Shown here piece by piece: positions 17,201-62,282 of a DNA stretch of 64,000 nt (its first letter is position 1; the number at the start of each line of letters is the position of its first letter). The stretch is from Thermodesulfobacteriota bacterium (GTDB lineage Bacteria; Desulfobacterota_D; UBA1144; Nemesobacterales; JAJCZQ01), in NCBI GenBank assembly GCA_965203965.1, contig CBDBDR010000015.1:32001-96000 (forward strand), read 5' to 3'. The notes below the pieces were generated by a model. The model saw only the letters and a list, made by a program, of their open reading frames with translations, ran no database searches and was not told where the DNA came from. The position numbers and the translations under genes are program-made.

Positions 17201-20200
17201 CTGTTTCTAAAGGTAGACTAATGAATAGTAGTGATGGCTGACAGTACATGTACGCTGTTTTTATAATGGATGGAACTGGACTTATAAAAGATAAACAGCA
17301 GATTTCTACTATCCCAAAGCGATCTTCCCTGTCTGCTAGTTCGAGTAGATACTGCTAAAGTGAGAAACGAGTAGAATCTGTGATTGTGGGCCATCATACT
17401 GGTTCTCTATGATGCATGTGGCAATCGTCTGTGAGTCATCATGGGTATAGAAAGCGAAATACTGCTTGATTGATTTGCCTATGTGTAGCTTAATCATCTT
17501 GTCAAAAGGATGTGGAAATGAAGACTGATCTGACAAAACTAAAGGCTCGTCTGCACTACAGAACTGGTTCAATGTGCATTAGTTAAAGATCAGATCATAG
17601 TGCATCGATCTGCTTACCACATGTCCGCACTGGTTGCAAATGCTGTTGTCATGTGACGTAAGCAACAGCTCGCTAAACAGCAAGAAAACTGGCCTTGTCA
17701 CATACTAACGCTATTCTAGTGTGTTTCGTGTCCTTTCTTTGCCCGAGCGCCGACCAGAGCTTCCATAGTACTAGTCACACGCCATGTGTTCGAGACCACT
17801 CCCATATCCAATCCAGTTCAAGTCACTTCAATGCACCTCCGTATGTGCACATCGATTCGCGTAGATTCACTTTTGTAAAATTGACGTGTAATGTAGACGG
17901 GATTAAACTACGCATTTTGAATGCGCATTGAACCGCATTAGAGCCCTAGTGCGGACGAGCCTTAACTAATTTGAAGTTTGAATAAGCTGCATTAGTAATT
18001 CATTACCAAAGTCAAGCAAACCATGAAGCACATCAGTTTTTCATTAACATTATTAATTTTCTCTTTTCCAGGTTGTGAAGTTGGATTTACAGCACAATGA
18101 GCTCACAGAAATACCTCGGTGTATCCTTGAGCTGCCTAGTCTAACCGAGCTCATCCTCTCCCACAATCATATTGTGGAATTGCCTGATATACATGAGTGG
18201 TCCGCTGGTCTGACAGTACTAGATTTGGCTTTCAATGAGCTAAGCAACCTCCCTAATACAATCGTAGCTCCCTCCATCAGGACACTGAATATCGGCGGCA
18301 ACAAGTTTCGCTTCGTTCCACTTTGCATCTGCTCCTTTACCAGCCTTCAATATCTTGATCTCAGTGAAAATGTTGATATTCTTTCTCTTCCTGTTGAGAT
18401 GGGTCGACTCTCTAATCTCACCAAGCTAGGACTGGTAGGTCTAAAGGATCTCAGTGATCCTCCACGTAATGTCCAGCGTGATGCAAGAGACTGCGTTCAC
18501 TACCTCAATAGCAAGCTTCGCAGTGCTAAAAAATTTTATCGCATGAAGCTTATGCTTGTTGGCAAGCAAGATCGAGGTAAGACAACTTTGGTAACTCGAC
18601 TGCAAGGCAATGAGATCGTGGGTCCCAACCAGTCTACGGTAGGTGTAGACGTGAGCGAGTGGAATTATGGTGGTATTGGCAAGCGCAAGTTTCAGTTTAG
18701 TATCTGGGACTTTGGTGGTCAAGAAGAATACTATGCTACTCATCAGTGCTTTCTCTCTGAGCGATCTATGTACCTCCTTCTTTTCAACCTCAAGCACGGA
18801 GAAAAAGGAGTCGAGGAGCTCAAACCATGGCTTGACAACATTGTCCTCAGGGCGCCACGTTCCTGTGTCATCATTGTTGGTACTCATCTTGATGAAGTGG
18901 AAGACTCAGAAAGGCCACAGATCGACCAACTTCTCAACAGTGTGGCCACTCTTGCCAGCAGCTATGGCAACAAGCTGCAAGTTCCTGAAGTATTGCCAGT
19001 TGGTCTTGTGAACAGGCTAGAGAACATAGGAGCTCTTCGCGAGGCAATATACTTACATGCTTCCGAGTTTAAGGCTCGAGGAAACCAGCCAATTATGGGA
19101 CAAGAGATTCCTGCTAGCTATTTTCAGCTCAACAAAGAATTGGAGAAGATACAACAACAAGTGAAAGAAAACAAGAGTGAGCCAATCATGCATGCCGAGC
19201 GCTTCAAGGATCTAGTTCAACAGCTGAAGCTCCCTGACATCCACAGCGATGGAGAGCTGCGAACAGCCACCCTCTTCCTCAACGAGGTAGGAACTATTCT
19301 CCACTATGATGATCGTAGCCACAACTTAAATGAGCTATATTTCGTGGATCCTCGTTGGCTTTGCGACATGATGTCAAAAGTTGTCACAGTCAGAGAAAGA
19401 AACAACTTTGTCAAGAATGGAATTCTCCATAGTATGTACATACCATTTCTTTATCGTGACAAACGATTTCCCTGGCAGTACTTTGAGCAGTATGTCACTC
19501 TTCTGGATCGCTTTGAAATAGCTCTTCCTCTCGACAACAAGCGAATACTTATTCCCTCCATGTTGCCCATTGAGCGTCCAAACGATGCTGATCTGTCTAG
19601 TCATCCAGATGGCCCTTACTACATGCGCTACATCACATTTGCTACTACTGTTCCTCCTGGATTCTGGAGCCGACTTATCTCTCGTATCATGCACACTGTG
19701 CCTGAAGTGTGCCATGCTGTTGATGTGAAAGCTGCCATGTCAAGTGATGAGGAGGCTATGGCATATTCTTATCCAGGAACACCAGATAAACCAGGTGACT
19801 TACTTATGGATTCTTCTGAGGCCGTCTCTCCTGCTGGACCTCAATCTCCCAAGCCACAGTCTCCTTTGTCTACTCCTTCTACTCCTTCTACTCCCGGTAG
19901 TCAGCCTACTGTTCACCCACCCCTTGTTTTGCCTAATATCAGTCGCATTATTCATGATGAAGACTTTGGCGATGTCAATCCTGAAGACATCAAACTGGTG
20001 TACTGGAGAGAAGGACTAGTGTATGATGGACCTACAGTTAGTTTTGCTGTGGAGTCACTGACAAGATCAGGGCATAGATCAAAATCTGGTAGACAAGGTG
20101 TGTTATTAAAGGCATCTCCTACTGGGAAAGGCACCAAGACTATCTGCCTCTTGGTCGACTTGGTATTGGCACTTATTCATGACTGGTATCCAGGCCTGAA

Positions 20201-23000
20201 CGAAAGTACCTTTGCCAGTGGATGTGGTGTTGAGCAATGCATCCCTTGCTATGAGTGCCTCAGAGAAAACCATAGTGATCCTTTTGAGTTTGAAATTGAG
20301 CAATCACGTCTACATATAAGTAACAATCAGATGCAGATACGATGTGGATACAACACAAGAGATGATTCAGCCAATCATTTAGTCCAATTAAGTGACATTG
20401 TTCCAGATATGCTCTTGAGAGATCTTGATGCTGTATTTCTCCTTAAGAATTCTGAAATCAAGTATCAAGAAGATGCCAATTCTTTGCTAGGTGAGGGAGG
20501 CTTTGGAAAGGTGTATCGAGGCAAGTGCAGAGATAAGAGTGTTGCTATTAAGAAGTACATAGTGAACAGCAGTCGTCTTGAAGATGCCTTCAGTGAGCTT
20601 CGAGCAGAAGCTCTTGTTCTTCAGAAGTCTCATCATCCGTGTTTAGTGTGTCTTGTGGGAGTCTGTGTTCATCCTATGATGGCACTGGTTCTAGAGGAAG
20701 CTCCCATGGGATCTTTAGAGAAGTACCTCATTAAGAAACCAATACCAATTTCTCGAGTTGTGATCTATCGCATGGCAGCTCAGATTGCAGCTGCACTAAG
20801 GTTTCTTCATAATACGGGGTACATCTTTAGAGATCTGAAAGCAGCAAATGTGCTCGTTTGGTCACTAGAGCCTGAGTCTTTGTGCCACTGCAAGGTAACA
20901 GATTTTGGCATCGCCACGCACCTCTCTCCAGTTGGAGCACTTGGAATTCAAGGAACAAAAGGGTTTATTGCTCCAGAGGTTCTCTACATTGGAAAGAGGA
21001 AGGCTGTCTATACTCACAAGGCTGACATTTTTTCTTTTGCAATGTTGCTGTATCAGATGATTGCTCGTCGCCATCCTTTTCATAATGTACAGCCAGTGAA
21101 GATTGATACGAAGGTTGTGAGTGGAGAGCGTCCGAACATTGTTGATGTCCCTTTCGCTGACACTGGTTACTTTTTCTTGACCTACTTGATGAAGAAATGT
21201 TGGGAAGACAGACCAGAGTTACGACCACAGACCAGTGATATCATCAACAAAGTGTCTGGAATGGTCATGCAGTCAGTGATGGCCATACATTCGGTGAACA
21301 GCCGCTTCTCTGTACGCCGTTGCTGTGCGATTACACCAAGTAACTATGCTCGTGCTAATGTAGGCAACCATCCAAGTGAGCTTTGGGTTTGTTGCGATGG
21401 GGCCGAGGGAGCGGAAGTTAATATCTACAGCACTCGAATGGTGAAGCTGAACAAAAACTTTATCAAAGATAATCAAGTGCAGTGCATGTGCGTGTGTGGA
21501 GACCATGTCTGGGTTGGATCACGAGCTGGCATTGAGTATGGAGTGATTGATATATTCAGCATCACATCACGCGAACTTGTTCACAACATCCGAATGAGAG
21601 AGAATTCAGTCTCCTGTATCACCTGCTCTGACTCAACTGTCTACCTCGGTACACTTGAGGGCTACTGTTTTGCTTTCTGCATGGATATCAAGGCCATTCA
21701 GTCGAATGCTCGTCCACGATATAAGTACATCTCTGAGAATGCAGTGGATGGTATCGCTGTGACTAACAAGCATGTATGGGTGTCTCACACTAAACTGATA
21801 TACTTCCTCAACCTTGAAACACTGCAAATGGAACACTCCTGGCACCGACAAGGGAATCAAGATGAAGGGAATCAAGATGCGTTCATTGGACAACTGTCAT
21901 GTTCAAATGATGGAAAGATCATCTGGAGTGCTCATCTTGGAGGAACAATATTATCTGCTTTTGATGCACACGATGAGACCCACTTGTACGATATCAATAT
22001 CCAGCAAGAGTTCATACGTTTAGTGGGGAAAGGAATCCACTCAGAATATGATATCATAATGACAGCCGTAACTCCAGCACTAGACACAGTGTTTGTGGGC
22101 ATGGCAACAGGTCACATCGTGGTATTCCATGAGCAACTAGTAATGATGATCGCTCGACCATACACAGAGTATGTGAGGTTCCTTTGTCCGATTTTATCAG
22201 AAGGCCCTTGCCAGACAGAAAAGTGCATGGTCTTGGCTGGAGCTAAAGGATTCACCAGCCCTTTACCAGAGTACGATGTTGTTCTTTCTACAGCCGACTC
22301 AGAGGAAGAAAAGGGACATCAATCAGCCGGTGTACTAGTGATGTTTGAAGCTTATCCTGGCCCAATGATAAAGCAGATGAAATGTCTTGAGGATGATGAA
22401 GGAGGCTATTTGTCATCACACACTAATCTCGCCAGAATGATTCGTAGTCAGCACTTCAAAGATGCTACTCATATCCTTGATTTAGCTGGAAAGAGTGAGA
22501 CACTGAGACCAGTTCTACAGAAAACCACCAAAGATTTTGAAGAAAGCGGCATTCGTCACTCTATGCTGACCTCCTCCATAGCTGGCTCTCTTCCCTCTAC
22601 TCCTATCAAACAATCAAATGAAAATTTTGAAGAGAAGAAAATTTCACCACTTCCCTCATCCACCGAGATAGATGGACAACCTCCTTGTAACAAGGAAGAA
22701 ATTATCAAAGAATTGGAATCTCCTCCTCGACCACGAGCAAGAACCAACACGGTTATTCAAGAGACAATGGATGTGGAAGTGCAAGGCCAAGCGGTACGTA
22801 TCTCCTGTCCCAAGCCAGCAACAATGTCAGAAGTTATGAGAGAGCTAGCCATCAATACATCAAAGGAGACAACTCAGAACCATTGTCTTGGGTATAGAGC
22901 TCTAGATTCGGGAATGATGATAAAGGTGCTCGCAGACGATGAACTACAGCAGTATCTCAAAATGGAGTCTCGACCCAGCCTAACCTTGATCCTAAAATAA
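14226..23000 (+). CDS. LRRK1-like Roco kinase copy 1 (ankyrin-LRR-ROC-COR-kinase-WD40, PB1-like tail); exons 14226-14631, 15445-16052, 18072-23000
   Basis: Ankyrin TPLH repeats; LxxLxLxxN LRRs; ROC GKQDRGKTT, WDFGGQ, VGTHLD; kinase GEGGFG, VAIK, FRDLKAAN, DFG, GTKGFIAPE; splice phases consistent. Confidence 0.93.
14994..15231. repeat. Imperfect direct duplication (~95-110 bp) in LRRK intron 1
   Basis: tgccttggctaagac..acaatgggtagtgtccctccctctcttaaaatagaacttagcagtttacactatgatgccatgct occurs at ~14994-15106 and ~15137-15231. Confidence 0.85.
17543..17962. mobile_element. PIF/Harbinger-like MITE
   Basis: 16-bp TIRs aggctcgtctgcacta / tagtgcggacgagcct (1 mismatch), flanked by TAA on both sides. 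Confidence 0.75.
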
Positions 23001-23183: not shown

Positions 23184-26100
23184 ATGGCAAGATATTTTAG
23201 CTTCAAGAAAAAAGACAGCAACTCGCTTCAAGGTAAGAAACTCCGCGTCCGTGCTTCTGAATCATTTGCGGCTACGACCTGTACGAGGTTGCCGCTGGAG
23301 CAAATGTACAATGTATTCGAATGGTGGATAGGGCATTATTCATTGCGGTAGGAGGTGGTCGGATTTTTATTTTGGTTTGGTACAGATATTAGCGCCATTA
23401 TTACCCTGGGGTAGGGTTGGGTTTGTCTGTCTGTATGTAGTATGTGTATGTACAAAAAACGTGGCTGTTTATTGCCTTACTGCTCAAAGATTGTCATGAA
23501 ATAGCTCTCAACAGCTTGGTTGTTGAATATTTATTCAACGCTTGCGAAGTCATGCATGAAAGTCTTCTGTCGCGTGCTACGGCCATGCATGTATTCCTAT
23601 TAGCAACATCGCCGATTAGAACATTCCGGTAAGTAGGTGTGCCACAATTGTGAGACGTGGCCAAGCCATTAAATTAAAATCCACCAATAATTATTTTGAC
23701 AAAACGCTAATAATTATACATGTAGTACTTTGCGCCAATATTTTCTGCTATATGGTATGAGATACCTATGTCCATTGCTGTTCCATTTAGCGACTGATTA
23801 GAGCATAATAATTATTAGACCACAGCTAAACAACGCTCACGTGTCTTTGCTCGTCGTTCGTGTTGTTTTTGTTTGCTGTTGCTATGGTCTAAATCAGTTA
23901 GACTGCGCATCCAATCGGATCTACGCGATGTAGATGCCCTCACGCCGTTACCATAGCGCCCTCGCTACACTCGGATGCTATATAGCAACGGCTCTCGGGC
24001 TTCTAAATTGTGTAGATCCTCGGATGCGCTGTCTAACTATTATTTATAATGAGATTTACAGTGAAACCCCTCTTAATTAGCATGGACCGGACTCATCTCT
24101 CTATAATAGCACTTATTATTACTGAACCCCAAATAATGGATACCCTAGCTCTCTAAAATGGACAATATTGTTTGTCCTAATGGTGTCCGCTTTATAGAGG
24201 CTCCACTGTATCGCAAACTTCTGACTTGTTTAACTTTCAGAAATGGTGTTAGTTTTTAAGATTTGGTTTGTTTATAGTTTTAGAATCAGTTCTGTTTTTG
24301 TTTGAGGTTTGGACGTTTATTATGACAAGAAGGTTTTCATAATAAAAGCTTGACTCAATGAATGATTTTATGTAAGTCCACAAAGAAGTCTGTGGAGTAT
24401 GTTAAGCTCCTGTTTGAGCTAATTTATAATTCTTAAAACCTGTATTGGCAAAAGGAAATGCCATTTAGTAAGTTAGTGGTTTTCCAGAAGTAACACAAGT
24501 ATGCAGCAGTCATAGTGCATTGTCTGGTAACAAGGATTAAAACTCACAAGACTGAATAATTATTATTGCACCAAAATTTAAACAGCTTGATGGTAGCCAG
24601 CAAAAGTATCCTGATCTACTTGAGTGCCCGATACTGTTTTGCTTGGCTACTGATGAATATCGAACAAGTCTGAACTTCATGGAATCCTCGAGGACAATTC
24701 ACTACATAGTTAGCAAAATAGCTTTACTCTCTCAGGCCCTAGTAAGACAGTTAGTAGATGAGTACTGTTCGTAATTTTGATGCTAGAATTGGTATGCCAT
24801 TTTCCAGCACAGCGCCCACACATTATGCTCACTGCAGCTACATCCATGGAGGCGCAGCAGAATTCGACTAGATGATAATCATTCAATGACTCAATACAAT
24901 GTTAATGTTGTGACTATGGTTAATCGATAATCAAGGTAGAGGAGCTCCACATTATGACACTGTAAGCGTGGATGCTTTTTACTATGCGAAAACAGTAAAA
25001 TTTCTGTGTTTATTGTAGCAAATTTTTACACTACTGATTTAATAGTGTGTGATAGAAACTTTTCACTAAAATTTTAATCATAGAAAAAATCCAAGAAACA
25101 GAGGATGAGGATCGAATAAAGAATGAGGAATTGGAGAAGGACTGCCTCGAGCGAGCTCTCACAGCTGCTGTCACAACTGGTAACCACTTCAATGTGGGCA
25201 AGTTGATTGTTAAGGGTGCCACAAATATCGACAATGCCCTCAAGCAAGCCATCGAAACAAAGAAATACCATGCCACGGCCATGCTTCTTTTGGTTATTGC
25301 TGCTATGAAAGGGAAATGTCAGCTTGTTCTGAAGCTGTTTACTGAGTATTCTGGGGCTGTTGCTCTCCCTGAAGGTGTAGAAATCACTGAAGAGGATATC
25401 AAAGAAGTACAGAAAGCTGTTACATCTGGGCAAGTATCCACAGTCGTACCAATCGAGATAGCTCGAAGAAAGGGCCAGGATAGTGTCCGAGAGGAGCTGC
25501 TTCTTCACACTGAAGTGAAACAAGATGAAGGCACCGTATATTGGCATGGGCTACGACTGCTGAATATTGAGCTCTCCTGGATCAGAAAGATTCACTGGGT
25601 AAAGAGACTACGTCTTGCTCGAAATGGATTCCGCTTCATTCCAAGTGAAGTCAGACAATATCTAAAACAGGTAATTAGTCAGCATAATATTTTTTCCAAT
25701 TAGAATTAAGGCCTACAAAGTGCATTGAATTCCCTTTGGAGAATTGCTCGTCCAAGGTGAAGTCAATGCGCATTGAGTGCGTTCACAATTTAGTGACAAT
25801 ACAAATAAAGAAACGATTTGAAAAATGAATTAGCCATTACCGCTGTCATGTGACCAAATTTCTCTTGGCGTCCTAGTCACTTCAGTAGCCCATCCAATCA
25901 TCCATGCAGTTGTAGTACCCCTCTAGTCTCTCTGCATGCACTCACGAAGCACATTTTCACGATTTCATGCAAGAGGTGTGACTTCGTTATTGATGAATAA
26001 TAATATGATTTGCTTGAATCGCTTCCAGTCCACTTCCAAACCATCTCCGTACATGGTTTAGCTGAAAGCGCATTGAACTCGAATGCGCATTCAGTGTGAA

Positions 26101-29100
26101 TGATGCAAATCGAATTCAATGTGCATATAATGTACATTGAATTCGCAATTTTGCCATAGTATAATGAAGGGCCTTAAATGGGTGCACACTGCTCACTTCA
26201 TACTTGTTTACTCTTTCCCTATCTAGGTCGTTCTGCTTGATTTACAGCACAATGAGCTGACAGAAATACCTCGTTGTATCCTTGAGCTGCCTAGTCTAAC
26301 CAAACTCATCCTCTCCCACAATCATATTGTGGAATTGCCTGATATACATGAGTGGTCCGCTGGTCTGACAGTACTAGATTTGGCTTTCAATGAGCTAAGT
26401 AACCTCCCTAATACAATCGTAGCTCCCTCCATCAGGACACTGAATATCAGCGGCAACAAATTTCGCTTCGTTCCACTTTGCATCTGCTCGTTTACCAGCC
26501 TTCAATATCTTGATCTCAGTGAAAATGTTCACATTCGCTTTCTTCCTGTTGAAATGGGTCGACTCTCTAATCTTACTAAGCTAGGACTGAAGGGTCTGAA
26601 ATATCTCAGTGATCCTCCACGTAATGTTCAGCGTGATGCAAGAGACTGTGTTTACTACCTCAATAGCAAGCTTCGCAGTGCTAAAAAATTTTATCGCATG
26701 AAGCTTATGCTTATTGGCAAGCAAGATCGAGGTAAGACAACTTTGGTAACTCGACTGCTAGGCAATGAGATCGTGGGTCCCAACCAGTCTACGGTAGGTG
26801 TAGACGTGAGCGAGTGGAATTATGGTGGTATTGGCAAGCGCAAGTTTCAGTTTAGTATCTGGGACTTTGGTGGTCAAGAAGAATACTATGCTACTCATCA
26901 GTGCTTTCTCTCTGAGCGATCTATGTACCTCCTTCTTTTCAACCTCAAGCACGGAGAAAAAGGAGTTGAGGAGCTCAAACCATGGCTTGACAACATTGTC
27001 CTCAGAGCACCACGTTCCTGTGTCATCATTGTTGGTACTCATCTTGATGAAGTGGAAGACTCAGAAAGGCCACAGATCGACCAACTTCTCAACAGTGTGG
27101 CCACTCTTGCCAGCAGCTATGGCAACAAGCTGCAAGTTCCTGAAGTACTGCCTGTTGGTCTTGTGAACAGGCTAGAGAACATAGGATATCTTCGTGAGGC
27201 AATATACTTACATGCTTCTGAGTTTAAGGCTCGAGGAAACCAGCCAATTATGGGACAAGAGATTCCTGCTAGCTATTTTCAGCTCAACAAAGAATTGGAG
27301 AAGATACAACAACAAGTGAAAGAAAACAAGAGTGAGCCAATCATGCATGCCGAGCGCTTCAAGGATCTAGTTCAACAACTGAAGCTCCCTGATATCCACA
27401 GCGATGGAGAGCTGCGAACAGCCACCCTCTTCCTCCATGAGGTAGGAACTATTCTCCACTATGATGATCGAAGTCACAGCTTAAATGAGCTATATTTCGT
27501 GGATCCTTGCTGGCTTTGCGACATGATGTCAAAAGTTGTCAGAAGAAACAACTTTGTCAAGAATGGAATTCTCCATAGTATGTACATACCATTTCTTTAT
27601 CGTGAGAAACAATTTCCCTGGCAGTACTTTGAGCAGTATATCACTCTTCTGGATCGCTTTGAAATAGCTCTTCCACTCGACAACAAGCGAGTACTTATTC
27701 CCTCCATGTTGCCCATTGAGCGTCCAAACGATGCTGATCTATCTAGTCATCCAGATGGCCCTTACTACATGCGCTACATCACGTTTGCTACTACTGTTCC
27801 TCCTGGATTCTGGAGCCGACTTATCTCTCATATCATGCACACTGTGCCTGAAGTGTACCATGCTGTTGATGTGAAAGCTGCCTTATCAAGTGATGAGGAG
27901 GCTATGGCATATTCTTATCCTGGAACACCAGATAAAAAATCAGGCGACTTACTTATGGATTCTTCTGAGGGCGTCTCTTCTGCTGGACTTCAATCTCCCA
28001 AGGCACAGTCTCCTTTGTCTTATCCTTCTACTCCCGGTAGTCAACCTACTGTTCACCCACCCATTGTTTTGCCTAATATCAGTCGCATTATTCATGATGA
28101 AGACTTTGGCGATGTCAATCCCGAAGACATCAAACTGGTGTACTGGAGAGAAGGACTAGTGTATGATGGACCTACAGTTAGTTTTGCTGTGGAGTCACTG
28201 ACAGGATCAGGGCATAGATCAAAATCTGGTAGACAAGGTGTGCTATTAAAGGCATCTCCTACTGGGAAAGGCACCAAGACTATCTGCCTCTTGGTCGACT
28301 TGGTATTGGCACTTATTCATGACTGGTATCCAGGCCTGAACGAAAGTACCTTTGCCGGTGCATGTGGTGTTGAGCAACGCATCCCTTGCTACGAGTGCCT
28401 CAGAGAAAATCATAGTGATCCTTTTGAGTTTGAAATTGAGCAATCACGTCTACATATAAGTAACAATCAGATGCAGATACGATGTGGATACAACACAAGA
28501 GATGATTCAGCCAATCATTTAGTCCAATTAAGTGACATTGTTCCAGATATGCTCTTGAGAGATCTTGATGATGTATTTCTCCTTAAACATTCTGAAATCA
28601 AGTATCAAGAAGATGCCAATTCTTTGCTAGGCGAGGGTGGCTTTGGAAAGGTGTATCGAGGCAAGTGCAGAGATAAGAGTGTTGCTATTAAGAAGTACAT
28701 AGTGAACAGCAATCGTCTTGAAGATGCTTTCAGTGAGCTTCGAGCAGAAGCTCTTGTTCTTCAGAAGTCTCATCATCCGTGTTTAGTGTGTCTTGTGGGA
28801 GTCTGTGTTCATCCTATGATGGCACTGGTTCTAGAAGAAGCTCCCATGGGATCTTTAGAGAAGTACCTCATTAAGAAACCAATACCAATTTCTCGAGTTG
28901 TGATCTATCGCATGGCAGCTCAGATTGCAGCTGCACTAAGGTTTCTTCATAATACAGGGTACATCTATAGAGATCTGAAGGCAGCAAATGTGCTTGTTTG
29001 GTCACTAGAGCCTGAGTCTTTGTGCCACTGCAAGGTAACAGATTTTGGTATCACCACGCATCTCTCTCCAGTTGGAGCACTTGGAATTCAAGGAAACAAA

Positions 29101-30660
29101 TGGTTTATTGCTCCAGAGGTTCTCTACATTGGAAAGAGGAAGGCTGTTTACACTCACAAGGCTGACATATTTTCTTTTGCAATGTTGCTGTATCAGATGA
29201 TTGCTCGTCGCTGTCCTTTTCATAATATACAGCCAGTGAAGATTGATACGAAGGTTGTGAGTGGAGAGCGTCCGAACATTGTTGATGTCCCTTTCGCTGA
29301 CACTGGTTACTTTTTCTTGACCTACTTGATGAAGAAATGCTGGGAAGACAGACCAGAGTTACGACCACAGACCAGTGATATCATCAACAAAGTGTCTGGA
29401 ATGGTCATGCAGTCAGTGATGGCCATACATTCAGTGAACAGTCGCTTCTCCGTACGTAATTGCTGTTGTGCAACATTGTCTTGCAAATCTGCTCAATTCC
29501 ATAGCAGTAGCCAATTCAGCGAGTCTTGCAAATTCAACAGTAGGAGCCTATTGGGTGAGCTTTGGGTTTGTTGTGATGGGACTGAAGGAACAGAATTTAT
29601 CATTTACAGCACTAGAATGGAAAATCTGGGCAAGATACTCATCAAGAACAATCAAGTGCAGTGCATGTGCGTGTGTGGAGACCATGTCTGGGTTGGATCA
29701 CGAGCTGGCATTGAGTACGGAGTGATTGATATATTTTGCAAGACGTCACATGAGCATGTTCATAACATAAAAATGACTAAGTTGGTCTCCTGCATCACCT
29801 GTTCTGACTCAACTGTCTACCTCGGTACACTTGAGGGCTACTGTTTTGCTTTCTGCATGGATATCAAGGCCATTCAGTCGAATGCTCGTCCACGATATAA
29901 GTACATCTCTGAGAATGCAGTAGATGGTATTGCTGTGACTAACAAGCATGTATGGGTGTCTCACACTAAGCTGATATACTTCCTCAACCTTGAAACACTG
30001 CAAATGGAACACTCCTGGCACCGACAAGGGAATCAAGATGCGTTCATTGGACAGCTGTCATGTTCAAATGATGGAAAGATCATCTGGAGTGCTCATCTTG
30101 GAGGAACAATATTATCTGCTTTTGATGCACATGATGAGACCCACTTGTACGATATCAATATCCAGCAAGAGTTCATACGTTTAGTTGGGAAAGGAATCCA
30201 CTCAGAATATGATATCATAATGACAGCCGTAACTCCAGCACTAGACACAGTGTTTGTGGGCATGGCAACAGGTCACATCGTGGTATTCCATGAGCAACTA
30301 GTAATGATGATTGCTCGACCATACACAGAGTATGTGAGGTTCCTTTGTCCGATTTTATCAGAAGGCCCTTGTCAGACAGAAAAATGCATGGTCTTGGCTG
30401 GAGCTAAAGGATTCACCAGCCCTTTACCAGAGTACGATGTTGTTCTTTCTACAGCCGACTCAGAGGAAGAAAAAGGACATCAATCAGCCGGTGTACTAGT
30501 GATGTTTGAAGCTTATCCTGGCCCAATGATAAAGCAGATGAAATGTCTTGAGGATGATGAAGGAGGCTATTTGTCATCACACACTAATCTCGCCAGAATG
30601 ATTCGTAGTCAGCACTTCAAAGATGCTACTCATATCCTTGATTCACCTACGCATGTTTGA
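23184..30660 (+). CDS. LRRK-like Roco kinase copy 2, lacking the ankyrin exon and C-terminal tail; exons 23184-23232, 25084-25670, 26227-30660
   Basis: Exons near-identical to copy 1. A short exon (MARYFSFKKKDSNSLQ, G|gtaag) splices in phase to the 25084 acceptor (EKIQETEDEDRIKNEELEK). The first exon is inferred. Confidence 0.85.
23815..24042. mobile_element. Short non-autonomous element: inverted-repeat pair followed by a long terminal hairpin (Crypton-like, tentative)
   Basis: IR ttagaccacagc (23815) / gctatggtctaa (23881); imperfect palindrome 23896-24038 with centre cctcgctacactcgg; ends tctaactattat. Confidence 0.6.
24059..24208. mobile_element. Tc1/mariner (pogo/Tigger-like) MITE
   Basis: TA-cagtgaaacccctct ... 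agaggctccactg-TA: imperfect TIRs with TA target-site duplication. Confidence 0.7.
25709..26174. mobile_element. Possible degenerate Harbinger-like MITE in the LRRK copy 2 intron
   Basis: aggcc..ggcct ends flanked by TTA/TAA; internal aatgcgcatt motifs shared with the 17543-17962 element. Confidence 0.4.
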
Positions 30661-36051: not shown

Positions 36052-39000
36052 CTAATACACACTCAAGATGAGAGAGAAGGTGAAAGACAGGCTTTTCATA
36101 TCGATAACCATGTTAGAGCTGAGTTCTGGCCCCACTGCTAGTACTAGTTCCTCCAGACGAGTCTCCAGTAGTTCTCTTTGCTTATCCTCTAACTGGTAGT
36201 TCTCCACTAACTCACGGAAGGGCAGGTATCGCTGATGGTTCAGACAAATGACCACACTCCCAACGTCAACACTGCTGGAACCAGTCAAACGCTCACGACG
36301 TACTCTATCCAGTGACAAGGCATCGCCAGGACAACATTCTTCTTGACAGCATTTTTCTTGACAGCTTTCCTTACTACAACAGGGCTAGACTGAAAAACAT
36401 TAATAAATGTTTTGATCTCCACACTATCTGTCTGATCGGTGGCTGTGTCCTTTTCTTGAGCTTGTCTCCATTTCTCTCTAGCCTCTTCTTGAGCTTTCTT
36501 GACTCCATCCAGTCCACACACCCAATCTGTGACAGTACAAGGACTATAGAAGTCGCCAGGAGTGTAGTTAGCTTTGTAACTGAGCTTGTGATTGCTGCCA
36601 TTCCACCCTTGCAGGTAGTAGTACTTGATGTTGGGGTTGCGTTCACTTAGTTTCTGTGCAAATTCGATCTCCTTTAGAGCAGAGTAGACTCCGAGAGACA
36701 GTTTCTGCATCTCCTTGCTCATAGAATACCACATGTACAGGCTCACCACTCCGTTAGGGACAATATCGATTAGTCCAACAGCAACTAGCTTCCCATCCAG
36801 CCGATACAACTGGTGATGGGTCCCATACTCGATCCCATCAATAGTCTCATTTCTGATCGGGCTATTTACAGTATGCTGTGCATACGAGAACTCTGATTTG
36901 GATGGTTTGTTATGTTTGTGTTGATGGTATTCGTTATAGAGCTCAAACGACTCTCTCACGAACTGGGTAGGGATGGTTTCAATGGTCATACTGTCTGGCA
37001 CTTTCTTGAGCACTTTCCGATAGCTTTTACGGGAACGATGGTTGAACTCTGAGAGGATCACTCTTGTCTCCCAGTCACTGCAATTCAAAGAGTGGTTATA
37101 ACGGAATCGATACATCTTGACAGCTCCTCTGCGGTACCAGCCATTGTCAATGAGACATTGGTATTGGTGAGGGGTAAGACCATGTGGTCTAAAGACTAGC
37201 TCTTCTGAGTGATCATCACTTTCACAATTGCTGCAGCTTGTGTGGTTGTTACCACATAACCTTCCAACACGAAAAAGCGGTTGATCAGGTGACAGGCCTA
37301 GCTTAGAAAGCTGCTGCTTGTCTGTTTCTGAGAGAAAAGGAGCAGATGGATGTTGTGCAACCAGGAACCTCTCGTCATCTTGAGGAAGAAGAGTGAGTGG
37401 AATGCGAGTGATCAACACACTGTCATTATCTATGGGCAAAGGAGCTCCTGAAATTACCTCAGGCCATGTCAGACTGTCCTTCAATGCACTCAATAGTTCT
37501 TCCTCTTTGTCTTGGCTAACAGATAAAGTGAAGAGAGCGCTTTTCTCCAGTAGTGTGACTGCCCATCTTTGGAGGTCAGGATTGGCTCGAGTCAGACGAT
37601 CGTTTTCTATCTTTTTCTGAACACCTCGAACAAAACCAAGTTCTCTCAGTCTCACAGCATTTATGTCTAAATCAACTGCTGCAAGGCTAAGCAAGACCGT
37701 GTAGCCAGCAACTTTGGCATCACCGGTTGAATTGAGTATCTCGTGAGCAGTTCTTAAAACCGGCATTGTCAGCACATAGCACTTATTAACTAGTGCCATG
37801 AAGCCAATCGAGGCTATTAAACCTAGAGACTGCCATACCAGATCCGCAACATTTGCTCTAGTGTGAAGTAGACGAAGGAGAACACTAACAACTCCACACT
37901 CTGCAAACATACGCTTGGCAGAGTCTCCTGATCCAAGAATGCGCAGAACTCGGCAGCAAGCACCAAGAGTAAGAGCATCAGTGTCAACCATGCGTTGATC
38001 AAGAAACGTAAACAATTTCTCATGGAACTTGTCATCCAATATACCTTGTTTATAGCATGGCTATTTAGTGCTACATTGCCGATGGCATGTATTGATGAGC
38101 GAGTGATCTGTGGCTCATAATGACTGCTAACCAATGAGTAGAGTTCTTGCATGTATCCCTGCGAGTAAAGGAGATCAGACAGATTCTTGTCGGCTGTAAG
38201 ACTCAAAACAATTCGACTGAAATGTCCAGCATATTCTGTAGCCTCATTGTCGTCATTAGACGACCGCATACCCACCTGTTGGGCCAGAAGAACAATCATC
38301 GAAGGCAGCTTAGTAATGGCAAAAGATGTAATGTTTTGCAAATATGTATGATACAAACGAATGAGTACAACGACAAGATTAAGAGTGACCGACCGAAGCT
38401 CTCTTTTCAACTTTATTGTTGACAATACATTGACTACCTTGGTATGAAGATCCAAGTCTAGCACTGCTTGAGCCAATTCTTTGCCATTGATGACATGGAT
38501 TACAGAGTGCACTGTAATGACTAGCAGGCGAGTTTCGTGCTGAAGATCGTCAACATCTGAAAAGATCTTAGAAAATATTGTTTCAAGAAATGGTTTATTG
38601 ACAAAGGTTGGTGGTATTCCATTCTTGAAAAGCCGAACAGTGGTGGAATAGATTGCTAAACGATGCTCAGAAGTGACCAATTGATTTTCGAGAAGATTCT
38701 TGATAAAACAGACATGGTTGTTACTGTAAAACTTTTGCTTTAGCTTTTCATTTGCAGAATTAACAGTGAAATGACCGCGAACAAAGAATGGCAAGGAAGC
38801 TAGATCAGGAGGGAATTGTGACGAGACAGAGTCAATGGCAGCACAAGTAGGAAGAATGCATAGAGTGGGCCACTTTTCTGTTGCTTCTTTAAGTCGACCA
38901 ACAATATCATACTGCATCAATAGCTCAATTGTTGGCTGTTCTTTTATATGAGTACACAGCAACGCCAAAAAATTGGCTATTTCCAAAAGAATTTCTTGAT

Positions 39001-40243
39001 TCTCGCTCACTCCATTAGAAACATCTAAGATCCCTAGAATGAGTGTCATTAGTTCTCGACAGTTCAAACTTGCTGGAATAATAGTGGCAGGATATTTCGT
39101 ACAACACAACAGAAGAAACTGGATGACCTGCAATGTAGACCTGTTCTGTTGGACGGCTTGAGCTTGAAGAATGAGAAATATAGCTGACAGCAATGTAGCA
39201 CCATCAAGCTCACTCATGAAAGAAGGCGAATTCTCACACAGTTTCATCATTATCTTCCATATTAGCGACTGACACGCCATAGCCATGGAAAACTTTTGAG
39301 CAGCAAAGAGCAAAAGTAGATGAGAAGATTCTTCAACATACTGATCAGAACTGCTGGGACAAGCTTCAAGAAACTTGATTAAAGCACAAAGCAGCCCGGC
39401 TAATTCTTCTTTCTCCATGACATCGTAGCAGCCAACTAGCATTCTTAGCTTTCTGTGTACGCCATCACTATCAAGCTGTCGAAGGAGTGAGATTGATAGT
39501 CGTAAAGGAAATTGCCTACCACAAGCAATGGCTGGTTGAGTGAGACTACCATAGGTGTCTGTGTCGAATGCCTTGCAGTAAATTGCTGCAAGATTGGACA
39601 CCAGTTCAGGAGAAGAAAAGGATCGTTGAAAACAGACAGAAAGATCGCCTGTCAATTCAATAAGTATAGGTCCTCTAGATGGGTGATCTTTCCAGCTGAA
39701 AGACGAAAGAGCTGAGAGCACAGAAGAGACCACCGGAAAAGTAGTGGAAGGAGAAGAAATTGGGACAAATTTACTAGCAGCCGAATGACATGCTTTTGTA
39801 ACATTAGCAATGACATCATCATTGTGCAGGAACTTTCTGACCACTCTTTCAACAGCCAGCCACAACCTACACAGAAAACATTAATAATAGAGTGTAAATG
39901 TTCTAATTATGAGGTGAAAATTAGTGTCATGCAAATTAACAAAACTGAATCCAGAAAGTGAAAGTCAACGGAAACATTAATTTCTGACCAACCTTACGAA
40001 TGCACCGTGTTTGTAGGATATACTTACCTTGTAAGCTGGAGTGGGGTACATTCCATACTTGTATCCATCAAAATTTCGTTGATAACAGACATGTCAGCAT
40101 CACAATTTGGGTCAGTTCCTGTGATCACGAAATATACAATTTCTAAGTATTCTGGTCTGTTCAAAACAATCCTGACCTGTCGCCATGACACTGTTACATG
40201 AAGACCCGTCTTCTCGCTGAACTACAGATTCACTGGCTCCCAT
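36052..40243 (-). CDS. ARM-repeat + ATE_N/ATE_C arginyltransferase-like fusion (~1,300 aa) with MGASES N-terminus; exons 40243-40177, 40118-40028, 39866-~36052; apparent 1-nt frameshifts at ~38042, ~36329 and ~36094
   Basis: In-phase GT-AG splicing. Long helical ARM-like region (SIHAIGNVAL; ACCRVLRIL..GVVSVLLRLL). ATE_N-like CSNC..LTPHQYQCLIDNGWYRRG. ATE_C near-identical to the copy at 1-935. Confidence 0.78.
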
Positions 40244-54879: not shown

Positions 54880-55066
54880 TTTCTGCTGCTGCTGCGGCGC
54901 GCCCAAAATAGCATCACGTGAGTTCATCACGTGATCCCCGCATGCATGCATAGCATATGCATAGCGCATGCTACATACTGCACTAGCACTGTGTCGACAT
55001 GTCAGCACTGTGTAGTTAGGTTATAAAATCTCCCACGACGAGTTCATCGCCTGATCACCAACCGAA
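54880..55066. promoter_or_regulatory. Bidirectional promoter region (BANF1 / SDR copy 1) with tandem TCACGTGA and TATAAAA
   Basis: CACGTG at 54915 and 54928; tataaaa at 55022. Confidence 0.55.
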
Positions 55067-56428
55067 ATGGCTACGGCTACCAGCCCTGAATTATGTTTGG
55101 TGACCGGTGCTTCAGGCTACATAGCAGGTCATGTCATCAAGCAACTGCTAGAGCGTGGAGAGGTGCGCGTGCGTGGGACGGTGCGAAGCCTAAAAAATGA
55201 AAAGAACGAAAAACTCCGTAGCCTTGTGCCCGATGCAAAATACCCTCTGGAGCTGGTAGAAGGAGACCTGCTGAATGCCGAGTCCTGGATAGAGGCTGTG
55301 AAAGGATGTTCAAAGGTCTATCATGTCGCATCTCCCTTACCCCGCGGGACTCCAAGGGACGAAAACGAACTTATAACCCCTGCTGTTGAAGGCACCCTAA
55401 ACGTACTCAAGGCGTGCGTTGAAGCTGGGACAGTGAAAAGAGTTGTCCTTACCAGCTCAGTAGCGGCTATATCTAATGGTCTGAATGCAGAAAATGGTCG
55501 CACCTACACATCAGAAGACTGGTCTACGGAGGGAAGTTGCGGTGCCTACGAGAAGAGCAAGTTGCTAGCAGAAAAGGCAGCTTGGGACTTTGTGAAGCAG
55601 TTGGAAGAGGACAAGAAATTTGAACTTGTTGCTATTAACCCTGCAGCCGTTTTTGGGCCTTTTGCCAGTCCTACTTCTGTCAATTCCACTTCAGTCAGCA
55701 TCATAAGTGACATTTTAAACAACAAGTTTGCTGCCTTTCCTCGTGTAAGCATCCCTTCAGTCGATGTCAGAGATGTTGCTAAGGCTCATTTGGCTGCCAT
55801 GGAAAAGCCTGAAGCAGCTGGTAACCGCTTTGTTCTTTATTCCAAGAGTATGTGGATGAGAGATATGGCTGATACTATTGCAGCTGAGTTCAAGCCAATG
55901 GGTTACAAGATTTCTTCAATGAATCTACCCAAGTTTGGATTGTGGATTTTCAAATGGTTTAGTGCTGATGCAAAGATGATGTACCCATTGGTTGACGTAG
56001 AGTACAGCTACGACACAACTAAGCTGAAGGATATATTGGGTATTGAACCAATCGACCTCAATGCTACAATTATCGACACGTGCTATAGCCTCATTGAGTA
56101 TGGTGTGGTTCCCAAGACTGCCAATTACAGGAATCCAAAATCAACTGAAGCAGAAACAGCAAGTGAACAACCAGAGGAAAAACCTAAAGCAGAACCTGCT
56201 ACTGAACCAACCGAAGCCAAAACAGTACAAGAAGAATCTCCTGAAGAGCTTGTTTCAAAGCAGAATGAATCAGAAGTTAAGTCGACTGAAGAGGAGACAC
56301 AAGAAGAAGGTGCTACCAAGCATGATGAACTAACTGAGCCCAAGTCAGCTAAAGAAAAGACACTAGAAACTACTAGTACTGAAGAACCTGCTTCTGAACA
56401 GAAGGAAGAGTCCCCTTCAAAAGAGTAG
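55067..56428 (+). CDS. Extended SDR NAD(P)-dependent reductase (aldehyde reductase/DFR-like) copy 1 with acidic tail
   Basis: LVTGASGYIA, RGTVR, HVASP, AVEGTLNVL, TSS, YEKSK catalytic YxxxK, VDVRDVAKAH. Confidence 0.92.
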   Translation: MATATSPELCLVTGASGYIAGHVIKQLLERGEVRVRGTVRSLKNEKNEKLRSLVPDAKYPLELVEGDLLNAESWIEAVKGCSKVYHVASPLPRGTPRDENELITPAVEGTLNVLKACVEAGTVKRVVLTSSVAAISNGLNAENGRTYTSEDWSTEGSCGAYEKSKLLAEKAAWDFVKQLEEDKKFELVAINPAAVFGPFASPTSVNSTSVSIISDILNNKFAAFPRVSIPSVDVRDVAKAHLAAMEKPEAAGNRFVLYSKSMWMRDMADTIAAEFKPMGYKISSMNLPKFGLWIFKWFSADAKMMYPLVDVEYSYDTTKLKDILGIEPIDLNATIIDTCYSLIEYGVVPKTANYRNPKSTEAETASEQPEEKPKAEPATEPTEAKTVQEESPEELVSKQNESEVKSTEEETQEEGATKHDELTEPKSAKEKTLETTSTEEPASEQKEESPSKE

Positions 56429-56570
56429 ATAAGTTTAGCTTGATGCATTAGTATTAAAAATTATTTTTAGCTTCATTTTTAGTTCAGTTTGTCAAGATCT
56501 TGCACATTATGATAAGAATCCGTGCCCAAAATAACATCACGTGACGTAGAGTGTTGCGCAGCTGCATGGA

Positions 56571-58184
56571 ATGGCTACGGCTACCAGCCCTGAATTATGT
56601 TTAGTGACCGGTGCTTCAGGCTACATAGCAGGTCATGTCATCAAGCAACTGCTAGAGCGTGGAGAGGTGCGCGTGCGTGGGACAGTGCGAAGTCTAAAAA
56701 ATGAAAAGAACGAAAAACTCCGTAGCCTTGTGCCCGATGCAAAATACCCTCTGGAGCTGGTAGAAGGAGACCTGCTGAATGCCGAGTCCTGGATAGAGGC
56801 TGTGAAAGGATGTTCAAAGGTCTATCATGTCGCATCTCCCTTCCCTCGCGGGACTCCAAGGGATGAAAACGAGGTTATAACCCCTGCTGTTGAAGGCACC
56901 CTAAACGTTCTCAAGGCGTGCGCTGAAGCTGGGACAGTGAAAAGAGTCGTTTTTACCAGCTCCATAGCGGCTGTATCTAACGGTATGAATGGAGAAAATG
57001 GTCGCACCTACACATCAGATGACTGGTCTATAGAAGAGAACTGTGGTTCTTATGAGAAGAGCAAATTGTTAGCAGAAAAGGCAGCTTGGGACTTCGTGAA
57101 GCAGTTGGAAGAGGACAAGAAATTTGAACTTGTTGCTATAAACGCTGCAGTTGTTTTTGGGCCTTTTGCCAGTCCTACTTCTGTCAATTCAACTTCAGTC
57201 AGCATCATAAGTGACATTTTAAACAACAAGATTCCTGCCTTTCCTCGTGTAAGCATGCCTTCAGTCGATGTCAGAGATGTTGCTAAGGCTCATTTGGCTG
57301 CCATGGAAAAGCCTGAAGCAGCTGGTAACCGCTTTGTTCTTTATTCCAAGAGTATATGGATGAGAGATATGGCTGATACTATTGCAGCTGAGTTCAAGCC
57401 AATGGGTTACAAGATTTCTTCAATGAATCTACCCAAGTTTGGATTGTGGATTGTCAAATGGTTTAGTGCTGATGCAAAGCAGATGTACCCATTGGTTGAC
57501 AAAGAATTCAGCTACGACACTACTAAGCTGAAGGATATATTGGGTATTGAACCAATCGACCTCAATGCTACAATTATCGACACGTGCTATAGCCTCATTG
57601 AGTATGGTGTGGTTCCCAAGACTGCCAATTACAGGAATCCAAAATCAACTGAAGCAGAAACAGCAATTGAACAACCAGAGGAGACACCTAAAGCAGAACC
57701 TGCTACTGAGCAGAACGAACCAACCAAAGCTGTAACAGCACAAACAGCACAAGAAGAATCTCCTGAAGAACCTGTTTCAAAGCAGAATGAATCAACTGAA
57801 GCTAAGTCGACTGAAGAAGAGACACAAGAAGGTGCTTCCAATCATGATGAGCCCAAATCAACTGAAGTAGAGACACATGAAGAAGGTGCATCCAATCAAG
57901 ATGAACCAACTGAGCCCAAGTCAGTTGAAGAAGAGACACAAGAAGGTGCTTCCAATCATGATGAGCCCAAATCGACTGAAGTAGAGACACAAGAAGAAGG
58001 TGCATCCAATCAGGATGAACCAACTGAGCCCAAGTCAGTTGAAGAAGAGACACAAGAAGGTGCGTCCAAGGAGGATGTACCAACTGAGCCCAAGTCAGTT
58101 GAAGAAGAGACACAAGAAACCACTGAACAACCTGCTTCTAAGCAGGATGAAAAAAAGGAGGAGTCCTCTCCAGAAGAGTATTAA
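56571..58184 (+). CDS. Extended SDR reductase copy 2 (tandem duplicate) with an expanded acidic repeat tail
   Basis: Near-identical to copy 1 over the enzyme domain, with the same motifs. Confidence 0.92.
   Translation: MATATSPELCLVTGASGYIAGHVIKQLLERGEVRVRGTVRSLKNEKNEKLRSLVPDAKYPLELVEGDLLNAESWIEAVKGCSKVYHVASPFPRGTPRDENEVITPAVEGTLNVLKACAEAGTVKRVVFTSSIAAVSNGMNGENGRTYTSDDWSIEENCGSYEKSKLLAEKAAWDFVKQLEEDKKFELVAINAAVVFGPFASPTSVNSTSVSIISDILNNKIPAFPRVSMPSVDVRDVAKAHLAAMEKPEAAGNRFVLYSKSIWMRDMADTIAAEFKPMGYKISSMNLPKFGLWIVKWFSADAKQMYPLVDKEFSYDTTKLKDILGIEPIDLNATIIDTCYSLIEYGVVPKTANYRNPKSTEAETAIEQPEETPKAEPATEQNEPTKAVTAQTAQEESPEEPVSKQNESTEAKSTEEETQEGASNHDEPKSTEVETHEEGASNQDEPTEPKSVEEETQEGASNHDEPKSTEVETQEEGASNQDEPTEPKSVEEETQEGASKEDVPTEPKSVEEETQETTEQPASKQDEKKEESSPEEY
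57790..58120 (+). repeat. Coding tandem repeat of alternating 63-nt and 51-nt units (114-nt higher-order repeat)
   Basis: EPKSTEVETxEEGASNQDEPT alternates with EPKSVEEETQEGASNHD. Confidence 0.85.
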
Positions 58185-62058: not shown

Positions 62059-62282
62059 AGTCATTTTTACATGCATCTTTTTATTATAATTATTTCTAAT
62101 GTAATTCTGTTTCTAATACAAAAACGACCCTTACTAATTATTTTGTCCATGCATGCCAAGCGCTACTGCGTGTAGATTCATAATCAAATTACGAAGTGGA
62201 TGACGCATGCATAATACATTTTGTCGACCGCAATAAAATACTGTGCATAGCGCCTTGCAGTAGTTGGCAATTCAGTTGAGCA

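Follow-up and report, generated by a model that had tools for sequence, protein, structure and literature searches.

An armadillo-type solenoid joined to an ATE1-type module in an apparently undescribed family of eukaryotic proteins

Introduction

ATE1 is, according to PMC7779560, the only known arginylating enzyme of metazoans and fungi, and the architecture described in PMC6594445 is the standard two-domain one. In the K. lactis enzyme, as set out in PMC9351520, the arginine pocket comprises S255, S273, E277 and Y289, with Y303-K304 and W260 also being relevant. The acidic residue of that pocket is essential, and bacterial Bpt, which transfers leucine, is hydrophobic in the pocket (PMC9351520). 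Considered here is a minus-strand gene at 40243-36052 of the window, by which is meant the whole 64,000-nucleotide stretch of DNA analysed (G000:C15:32001-96000, part of contig C15 of assembly G000). With three run-length differences allowed for, its product combines a long armadillo (ARM) solenoid with a transferase module of ATE1 type. The reading favoured, with a probability of roughly 0.6, is that the locus belongs to a conserved eukaryotic family of ~1,250-1,400 residues that is a distinct sister branch of canonical ATE1 and operates by the mechanism proposed in the Discussion. As predicted from sequence and structural models, the architecture is an MG start, a short disordered Ser/Thr/Pro-rich stretch with a small conserved helix, a superhelix of ~810 residues, a linker of ~50 residues and a complete ATE1 fold. 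The first-pass annotation, made from the letters of the window, had assigned ~900 aa to the ARM-like region; the region itself is sustained, its length being corrected to the ~810 residues plus linker just given.

Relative to eukaryotic ATE1 (human 8TZV; S. cerevisiae 7TIF/8E3S; K. lactis 7WFX/7WG1), the protein has ~1,320 rather than ~500 residues, adding ~860 N-terminal residues of solenoid and linker and the MG start. It is without a counterpart of human residues 102-267, is 28% identical to the human enzyme in structural alignment, and has GWYRRGG and YYLQGWN where ATE1 has GWRRSG and YYMGFY. Bacterial transferases of the Bpt/ATE type, with ATE_N plus ATE_C in ~250 residues, share a catalytic superfamily with it, but it is much closer to eukaryotic ATE1, and its family keeps the acidic residue of the arginine pocket where Bpt is hydrophobic (PMC9351520). 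No bacterial ATE form with a solenoid was seen.

With respect to the solenoid, the armadillo substrate adaptors that serve degradation, ARMC5 and ZER1/ZYG11B, yield weak Pfam matches (ARM_ARMC5, at most 34 bits; ZER1-like_2nd, E ~0.003) at residues ~560-840 depending on the member. These are below the respective cut-offs of 79.9 and 27 bits, and with neither a BTB domain nor a CUL2-box present the resemblance is one of generic ARM type. Membership of ARMC5 or ZER1 was ruled out, every match being far under cut-off. The fungal protein Vac8, an armadillo protein of the vacuole membrane that is both N-myristoylated and palmitoylated, provides an analogy only, since Vac8 lacks an enzyme domain and the window proteins lack a Cys beside the Gly for palmitoylation.

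Like the first-pass annotation, which knew of no described protein of such architecture, a search of the open literature found no paper describing an armadillo-arginyltransferase; subscription-only papers and annotation of the InterPro type lay outside that search, and prior notice there is possible. The family is conserved and monophyletic, and apparently undescribed to date.

One protein

That solenoid and ATE module are parts of one protein, as first proposed, is borne out by several uninterrupted frames. A search of the genome disclosed a paralogue 35 kb away, whose ATE_C match, the second in the genome, lies within an unbroken 1264-codon frame, and whose layout matches that of the gene under consideration, down to an upstream exon of its own (MGGLFS) followed by a 57-nt intron. 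A cluster look-up gave P0132, an intact 1260-residue version of the same gene, encoded in another assembly on a contig of 117,184 bases. To these is added P0138, an intact relative of 1259 residues on a 1.0-Mb contig, 82% identical (78-97% per 100-residue block), and single frames extend over both parts at loci L004, L006 and L008 (1283, 1267 and 1274 codons). Given the unbroken frames of the paralogue, P0132 and P0138, the fusion is real, and this is established without recourse to complementary DNA.

The two genes of C15 have diverged unevenly. At the protein level their scaffold halves are ~31% identical, while the DNA of the ATE half is a mosaic of 72-99% identity; for the stretch of the paralogue that aligns to human ATE1 the range of DNA identity is 60-99%. 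When window 36083-37402 is set against L003 7615-8928, the blocks 36505-36804 and 36109-36308 are at 95-99% and the others at 72-77%. Such a mosaic has the look of gene conversion that acts in patches, and only within the catalytic half.

Transferase fold and armadillo solenoid

Within the 591-codon frame, ATE_C (PF04377) is matched at 6.2e-27 (95.1 bits against a cut-off of 25), with 82-94 bits in nine of nine relatives; each of the 10 sequences scanned has an E value between 1e-23 and 1e-27. By sequence, the nearest protein of solved structure is human ATE1 (HMMER, 1.4e-30), the yeast enzymes following at 7e-9 and 7e-6. The ATE part of the paralogue aligns to human ATE1 chain residues 19-101 and then 268-437, leaving ~165 human residues without counterpart, which confirms that ATE_N and ATE_C are joined directly, without the long linker whose absence had been remarked on. 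The motifs reported for this part (CSNC, GWYRRG, HSLNC and YYYLQGWNGSNHKLSYK) were each found in the translation, and the predicted structure matches the ATE1 fold in N-domain, GNAT core and C-terminal domain.

The N-terminal 605 residues were modelled with AlphaFold from 119 aligned sequences as an all-helical solenoid, with a predicted local distance difference test score (pLDDT) of 94.2 and a predicted template modelling score (pTM) of 0.90, the range over the solenoid models being 93-94 and 0.90-0.92. The best Foldseek matches (E 4e-7 to 1e-5) include beta-catenin and designed armadillo proteins, at E 1e-6 to 4e-7, along with ARM proteins of the axoneme. The predicted structure is a right-handed superhelix of three-helix repeats, i.e. 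of armadillo type, and the ARM-like character ascribed to the region at the outset is thereby upheld.

The N-terminus

N-myristoylation has a pattern of Met-Gly, a small residue at position 3 and Ser or Thr at position 6. The MG-x-x-x-S start noted for the window gene recurs as a family trait, being present in six of the eight members examined: MGASES in the window gene, MGGLFS in its paralogue, MGHSQS in both L004 and L005, MGQNQS in L008 and MGHNQS in P0041. (Most database relatives are open reading frame (ORF) calls that start inside the large exon, and upstream sequence was examined in five metagenome loci.) The pattern fits both window genes and L008, with its Gln. In P0041, the MGHNQS start is in one open frame with the whole 1385-residue protein, and residues 24-111 of that protein align to L004 between its MG exon and its main exon (E 1.4e-8), a stretch that includes a conserved D-F-x-x-L-x-x-F-V helix also present in exon 2 of the window gene. 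From the sequence of these starts, the protein is probably lipid-anchored at its N-terminus via the predicted myristoylation.

Extent of the family and its position relative to ATE1

A search with the paralogue gave 116 full-length relatives of 829-1460 aa, all with ATE_C (PF04377). A precomputed ARM_ARMC5 match is also present in 70 of them, and just one carries a name, arginine-tRNA-protein transferase. At 50% identity the family comes to ~32 clusters. With so many relatives and clusters, and with tandem pairs on six other contigs, the suggestion of a lineage-specific branch is not supported. The contigs in question, of 186595, 228686, 330702, 290264, 166028 and 344798 bases, each hold two family members, which implies that tandem duplication is recurrent in other genomes.

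When the 460-residue ATE part was searched with exhaustively, 1953 matches came in at E <= 0.001. Of these, the 32 best (E <= 1e-30) are of the present family, canonical proteins of ~400-650 residues appear from 1e-30 downwards, and there is a gap in score. For phylogeny, a FastTree analysis (LG+gamma) used a 262-column ATE core from 229 sequences, 31 partial ones having been dropped from 260 matches, with a bacterial homologue from L009 as root. All 130 long forms group together, separately from the ~500-residue ATE1, in a clade with support of 0.986 and a stem of 0.57; its other seven leaves, of 137 in total, are fragments of fewer than 900 residues. L009 is a bacterial metagenome contig; at 6626-7834 it encodes a short transferase of ATE type in which the acidic residue of the arginine pocket is retained, and it also has a sigma-54-like ORF.

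No canonical ATE1 was found in the assembly, where ATE_C matches within the ~0.48 Mb of host DNA are the two paralogues only. Comparison of the N-terminal half with longer proteins, in search of a full-length close relative, gave one distant match only; scanning of genome contigs with P0132 gave 68 pattern matches, none of them confirmed; and a protein language-model atlas gave no usable match.

The frame breaks

In the window the gene is spread over three stop-free minus-strand frames, 39880-37823 (685 codons), 38060-36285 (591 codons) and 36384-36052 (110 codons). One frameshift had been annotated, at ~38042, which is not quite its location: the break is at a run of three A (38049-38051), and two more run-length differences follow (Table 1). 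Introns at the ~38042 and ~36330 breaks were ruled out, as coding sequence homologous to that of the paralogue runs without gap on both sides of each; at the former the intact copy differs by one A.

The three differences from P0132 are all changes of homopolymer length. Apart from them, there are four substitutions, all within residues 34-53, and none over the other ~1,250 aligned residues, and the paralogue on P0132's contig is 100% identical to that of the window. As P0132 is intact at all three places, and the 82%-identical P0138 likewise has no break, errors of assembly are the most likely cause, a conclusion that sequence comparison makes quite probable; the breaks would have arisen from a low-coverage host contig in the assembly of a symbiont, and probably not from biology. 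An unlikely alternative, though one with some substance, is that the window copy is a true, recently inactivated allele or pseudogene in a duplicated pair, with the function being carried by the paralogue. The density of breaks, three in 4 kb where the paralogue (1264 codons) and nearby frames (880-1647 codons) have none, is in keeping with this, as is the location in a duplicated, gene-converting segment; against that, a decayed copy sits poorly with ~1,250 residues identical to an intact version, with the intact 82% relative and with halves that both stay stop-free over 685 and 591 codons. In a second assembly (91-96% identity) the gene is likewise split, into parts of 72, 225 and 407 aa, on a contig of 9.2 kb, but broken versions are found on small contigs (9.2 and 8.2 kb), the intact ones being on large contigs.

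Residues of the transferase module

Key residues were mapped through HMMER alignment to K. lactis Ate1 (7WFX) and the residues named in PMC9351520, over 119 aligned sequences and with numbering from the first row of alignment A1. In the pocket, S481, S501 and Y523 are present in all 119, and E505 in 116, the other three having Asp. The catalytic Y536 and K537 are invariant, and W485 is in 118. The basic tRNA helix KSYRKVLKK is kept, as is the Arg pair of GWYRRGG (R351 in 119, R352 in 117). For the metal site, the two Cys of CxxC are present in 118 and 116 sequences; at the CC pair, 105 have the first Cys and 81 the second. That one of the pair is gone, as the first-pass annotation pointed out, is true of the window genes, but the loss is local, with 81 of 119 relatives keeping both. 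A nearly invariant His (118/119) is found four residues upstream of the pair, and a His of this invariant type might substitute for the lost Cys.

The annotation had gone on to suggest a different donor or acceptor. Because there is little or no variation in the arginine pocket, the catalytic Lys, the tRNA helix or GWYRRGG, with pocket, Tyr-Lys and Arg pair kept in 116-119 of the 119, a change of donor or acceptor is unsupported. The same residues make it improbable that an ATE fold is here put to other chemistry, be it with another aminoacyl-tRNA, with modification of a side chain, or with a membrane lipid as acceptor in the manner of the GNAT-fold aminoacyl-phosphatidylglycerol synthases: the Ser/Ser/Glu/Tyr pocket is retained together with its essential acidic residue, where that of leucine-transferring Bpt is hydrophobic (PMC9351520), and the acceptor motif has its Arg pair in 117-119. 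Very improbable is a pseudoenzyme, in which the ATE module would be a non-catalytic binding domain and the protein purely a scaffold. Loss of the second Cys in the lineage and the weakness of ATE_N against Pfam could be cited for it, but there is little or no variation at any residue on which catalysis and arginine binding are known to depend, and conservation along the protein is highest in the ATE core (97% over the best block of 100 residues, P0132 versus P0138). That the fusion is an artefact of gene prediction or assembly joining two neighbouring genes can be dismissed, for although the window break falls inside the solenoid region, it is ~270 codons upstream of the ATE module and away from the domain boundary, and the uninterrupted frames of the paralogue, P0132, P0138, L004, L006 and L008 refute it.

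Gene structure and genomic setting

The two small in-phase exons with their MGASES start, as originally annotated, are borne out by the sequence and by an exon model leading into 39867, the ATG of exon 1 having A at -3 and G at +4 (Table 1). With regard to the second intron, relatives called as ORFs read through a pyrimidine tract and xAG/G just before a conserved LL (window 39867/39868), and from such sequences a phase-2 intron at the start of the large exon is suggested to be conserved across the family; P0008, P0030, P0041, P0047 and P0049 lack the intron at this position.

Table 1. Coordinates in the window of the parts of the gene, of its run-length differences and of the paralogue
Feature	Position	Strand	Remarks
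Exon 1	40177..40243	-	67 nt; start ATG GGA GCC AGT GAA TCT = MGASES, of N-myristoylation type; spliced frame open
Intron 1 (predicted)	40119..40176	-	58 nt, GTCAGG...CACAG; weak donor
Exon 2	40028..40118	-	91 nt; short helix motif ahead of solenoid, counterpart of the D-F-x-x-L-x-x-F-V of relatives
Intron 2 (predicted)	39868..40027	-	160 nt, GTAAGT...GTGTAG; phase 2; position looks conserved family-wide
Large exon (exon 3), first part	38052..39867	-	armadillo-type solenoid, first ~605 residues; AlphaFold and Foldseek
Frame break 1	38049..38051	-	AAA, where AAAA is needed by intact P0132 (...SHAIKQGILDD...)
Remainder of solenoid (canonical ARM repeats) and linker to transferase	37239..38048	-	
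ATE_N region	37044..37238	-	CSNC, GWYRRG, HSLNCS: zinc-site Cys and basic acceptor motif
ATE_C, GNAT-type catalytic core	36552..36953	-	arginine pocket and catalytic Tyr-Lys; Pfam; same place in genome search
Frame break 2	36329..36330	-	CC, where paralogue DNA has CCC; P0132 reads ...KNVVPGDAL...
Run-length difference 3	36093..36096	-	AAAA, where paralogue has AAA; P0132 reads ...DMKACLSPSLSS; stop would be 36063-36065
C-terminal domain of ATE module	36052..36328	-	stop in present assembly TAG 36052-36054; model aligns to human ATE1 through chain residue 518
Intact paralogue, last 310 codons	1..935	+	whole gene G000:C15:29141-32935

Assembly G000 has one contig of 1.51 Mb with a coding density (bases in frames of at least 100 codons) of 0.93, which is bacterial-like, and 16 further small contigs, 14 of them at 0.27-0.61, C15 being among these at 0.61. 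The gene content of C15 is eukaryotic: HSP90, RING/B-box proteins, tectonin-repeat proteins, SKIP/SNW, the 24-kDa complex-I ferredoxin, leucine-rich repeat (LRR)-Roc-COR-kinases with an LRRK2-type propeller, and ankyrin-Roc. Because C15 carries such genes, the locus is on host eukaryotic DNA filed with a bacterial genome record. The gene set looks animal-like. The practical point is that a record catalogued as bacterial contains host eukaryotic contigs with homopolymer errors.

Two other sets of neighbours are repeated in tandem. At 15435-23000 and 25056-30660 of the window is a duplicated unit in which a small helical ORF is paired with a gene for an LRR-Roc-COR-kinase, of 1647 and 1477 codons; the second copy has small in-frame deletions and an early end and is without the propeller match of the first. 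At 55055-56428, 56550-58184 and 62280-63998 are three genes for proteins resembling NAD-dependent epimerases/reductases, with long, acidic, repetitive C-terminal tails of the PKAEEP type and similar.

Discussion

A number of observations weigh against the reading favoured here. ATE_N (PF04376) is matched in the window gene at 0.0019 (18.8 and 17.9 bits), under its cut-off of 27; there is no match at E <= 0.01 for the paralogue P0004, and the cut-off is exceeded in two of the nine proteins scanned (P0100 and P0095). At the acceptor motif, exact equivalence with that of ATE1 (GWRRSG, with K. lactis R80, which binds the acidic N-terminus) is ambiguous, and residue-by-residue comparison uncertain, owing to an insertion of one residue. 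The two window genes have C-S in place of the CC pair, leaving three Cys, the second Cys having been lost in the lineage (Ser in 22/119), and metal binding may differ. For the solenoid, Pfam families of ARM type are all under cut-off, the best being ARM_ARMC5 at 34 bits against 79.9, with ARM_PUB at 24.5 against 33. Three of the MG starts (L004, L005 and P0041) have His at position 3, which the myristoylation pattern excludes, and the upstream regions of L006 and L007 gave no convincing MG exon. Also pertinent is that the donor of intron 1 (GTCAGG) is weak, and that an in-frame ATG inside exon 2 could initiate without the MG exon. Finally, three indels in 4 kb fit a uniform error model poorly, with neighbouring frames of up to 1647 codons being unbroken.

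The reading of the locus as a member of a distinct sister branch of ATE1 comes with a proposed mechanism, which has four steps. Gly2 would be myristoylated co-translationally and hold the enzyme at a membrane, perhaps reversibly. The armadillo groove would take up a client or partner, much as beta-catenin, importin-alpha and Vac8 do. Arg-tRNA would be bound by the ATE module via its basic helix and the Ser/Ser/Glu/Tyr pocket, after which the invariant Lys would transfer the arginine to an acidic N-terminus that the conserved Arg pair keeps in place.

Animals are known to have a single protein-arginylating enzyme; on sequence grounds, the present family suggests a second. A more far-reaching proposal is tentative and, for now, rather doubtful: the animals and other eukaryotes that carry the family may have a second, dedicated arginylation system that is lipid-anchored, in which the armadillo scaffold picks membrane clients and so marks, with no need of cytosolic ATE1, a particular set of proteins close to the membrane (a lipid being the less likely target), and in which divergence of the scaffold after tandem duplication, together with a gene-converted catalytic half, would diversify the choice of client.

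Work on arginylation and on the Arg/N-degron pathway takes it that there is one enzyme. The present family looks catalytically intact in sequence and has a targeting scaffold of its own and a probable lipid anchor. If it is active, part of the arginylation in these organisms would be independent of ATE1 and spatially restricted, and the family would be a natural example of substrate choice built into an aminoacyl-tRNA transferase.

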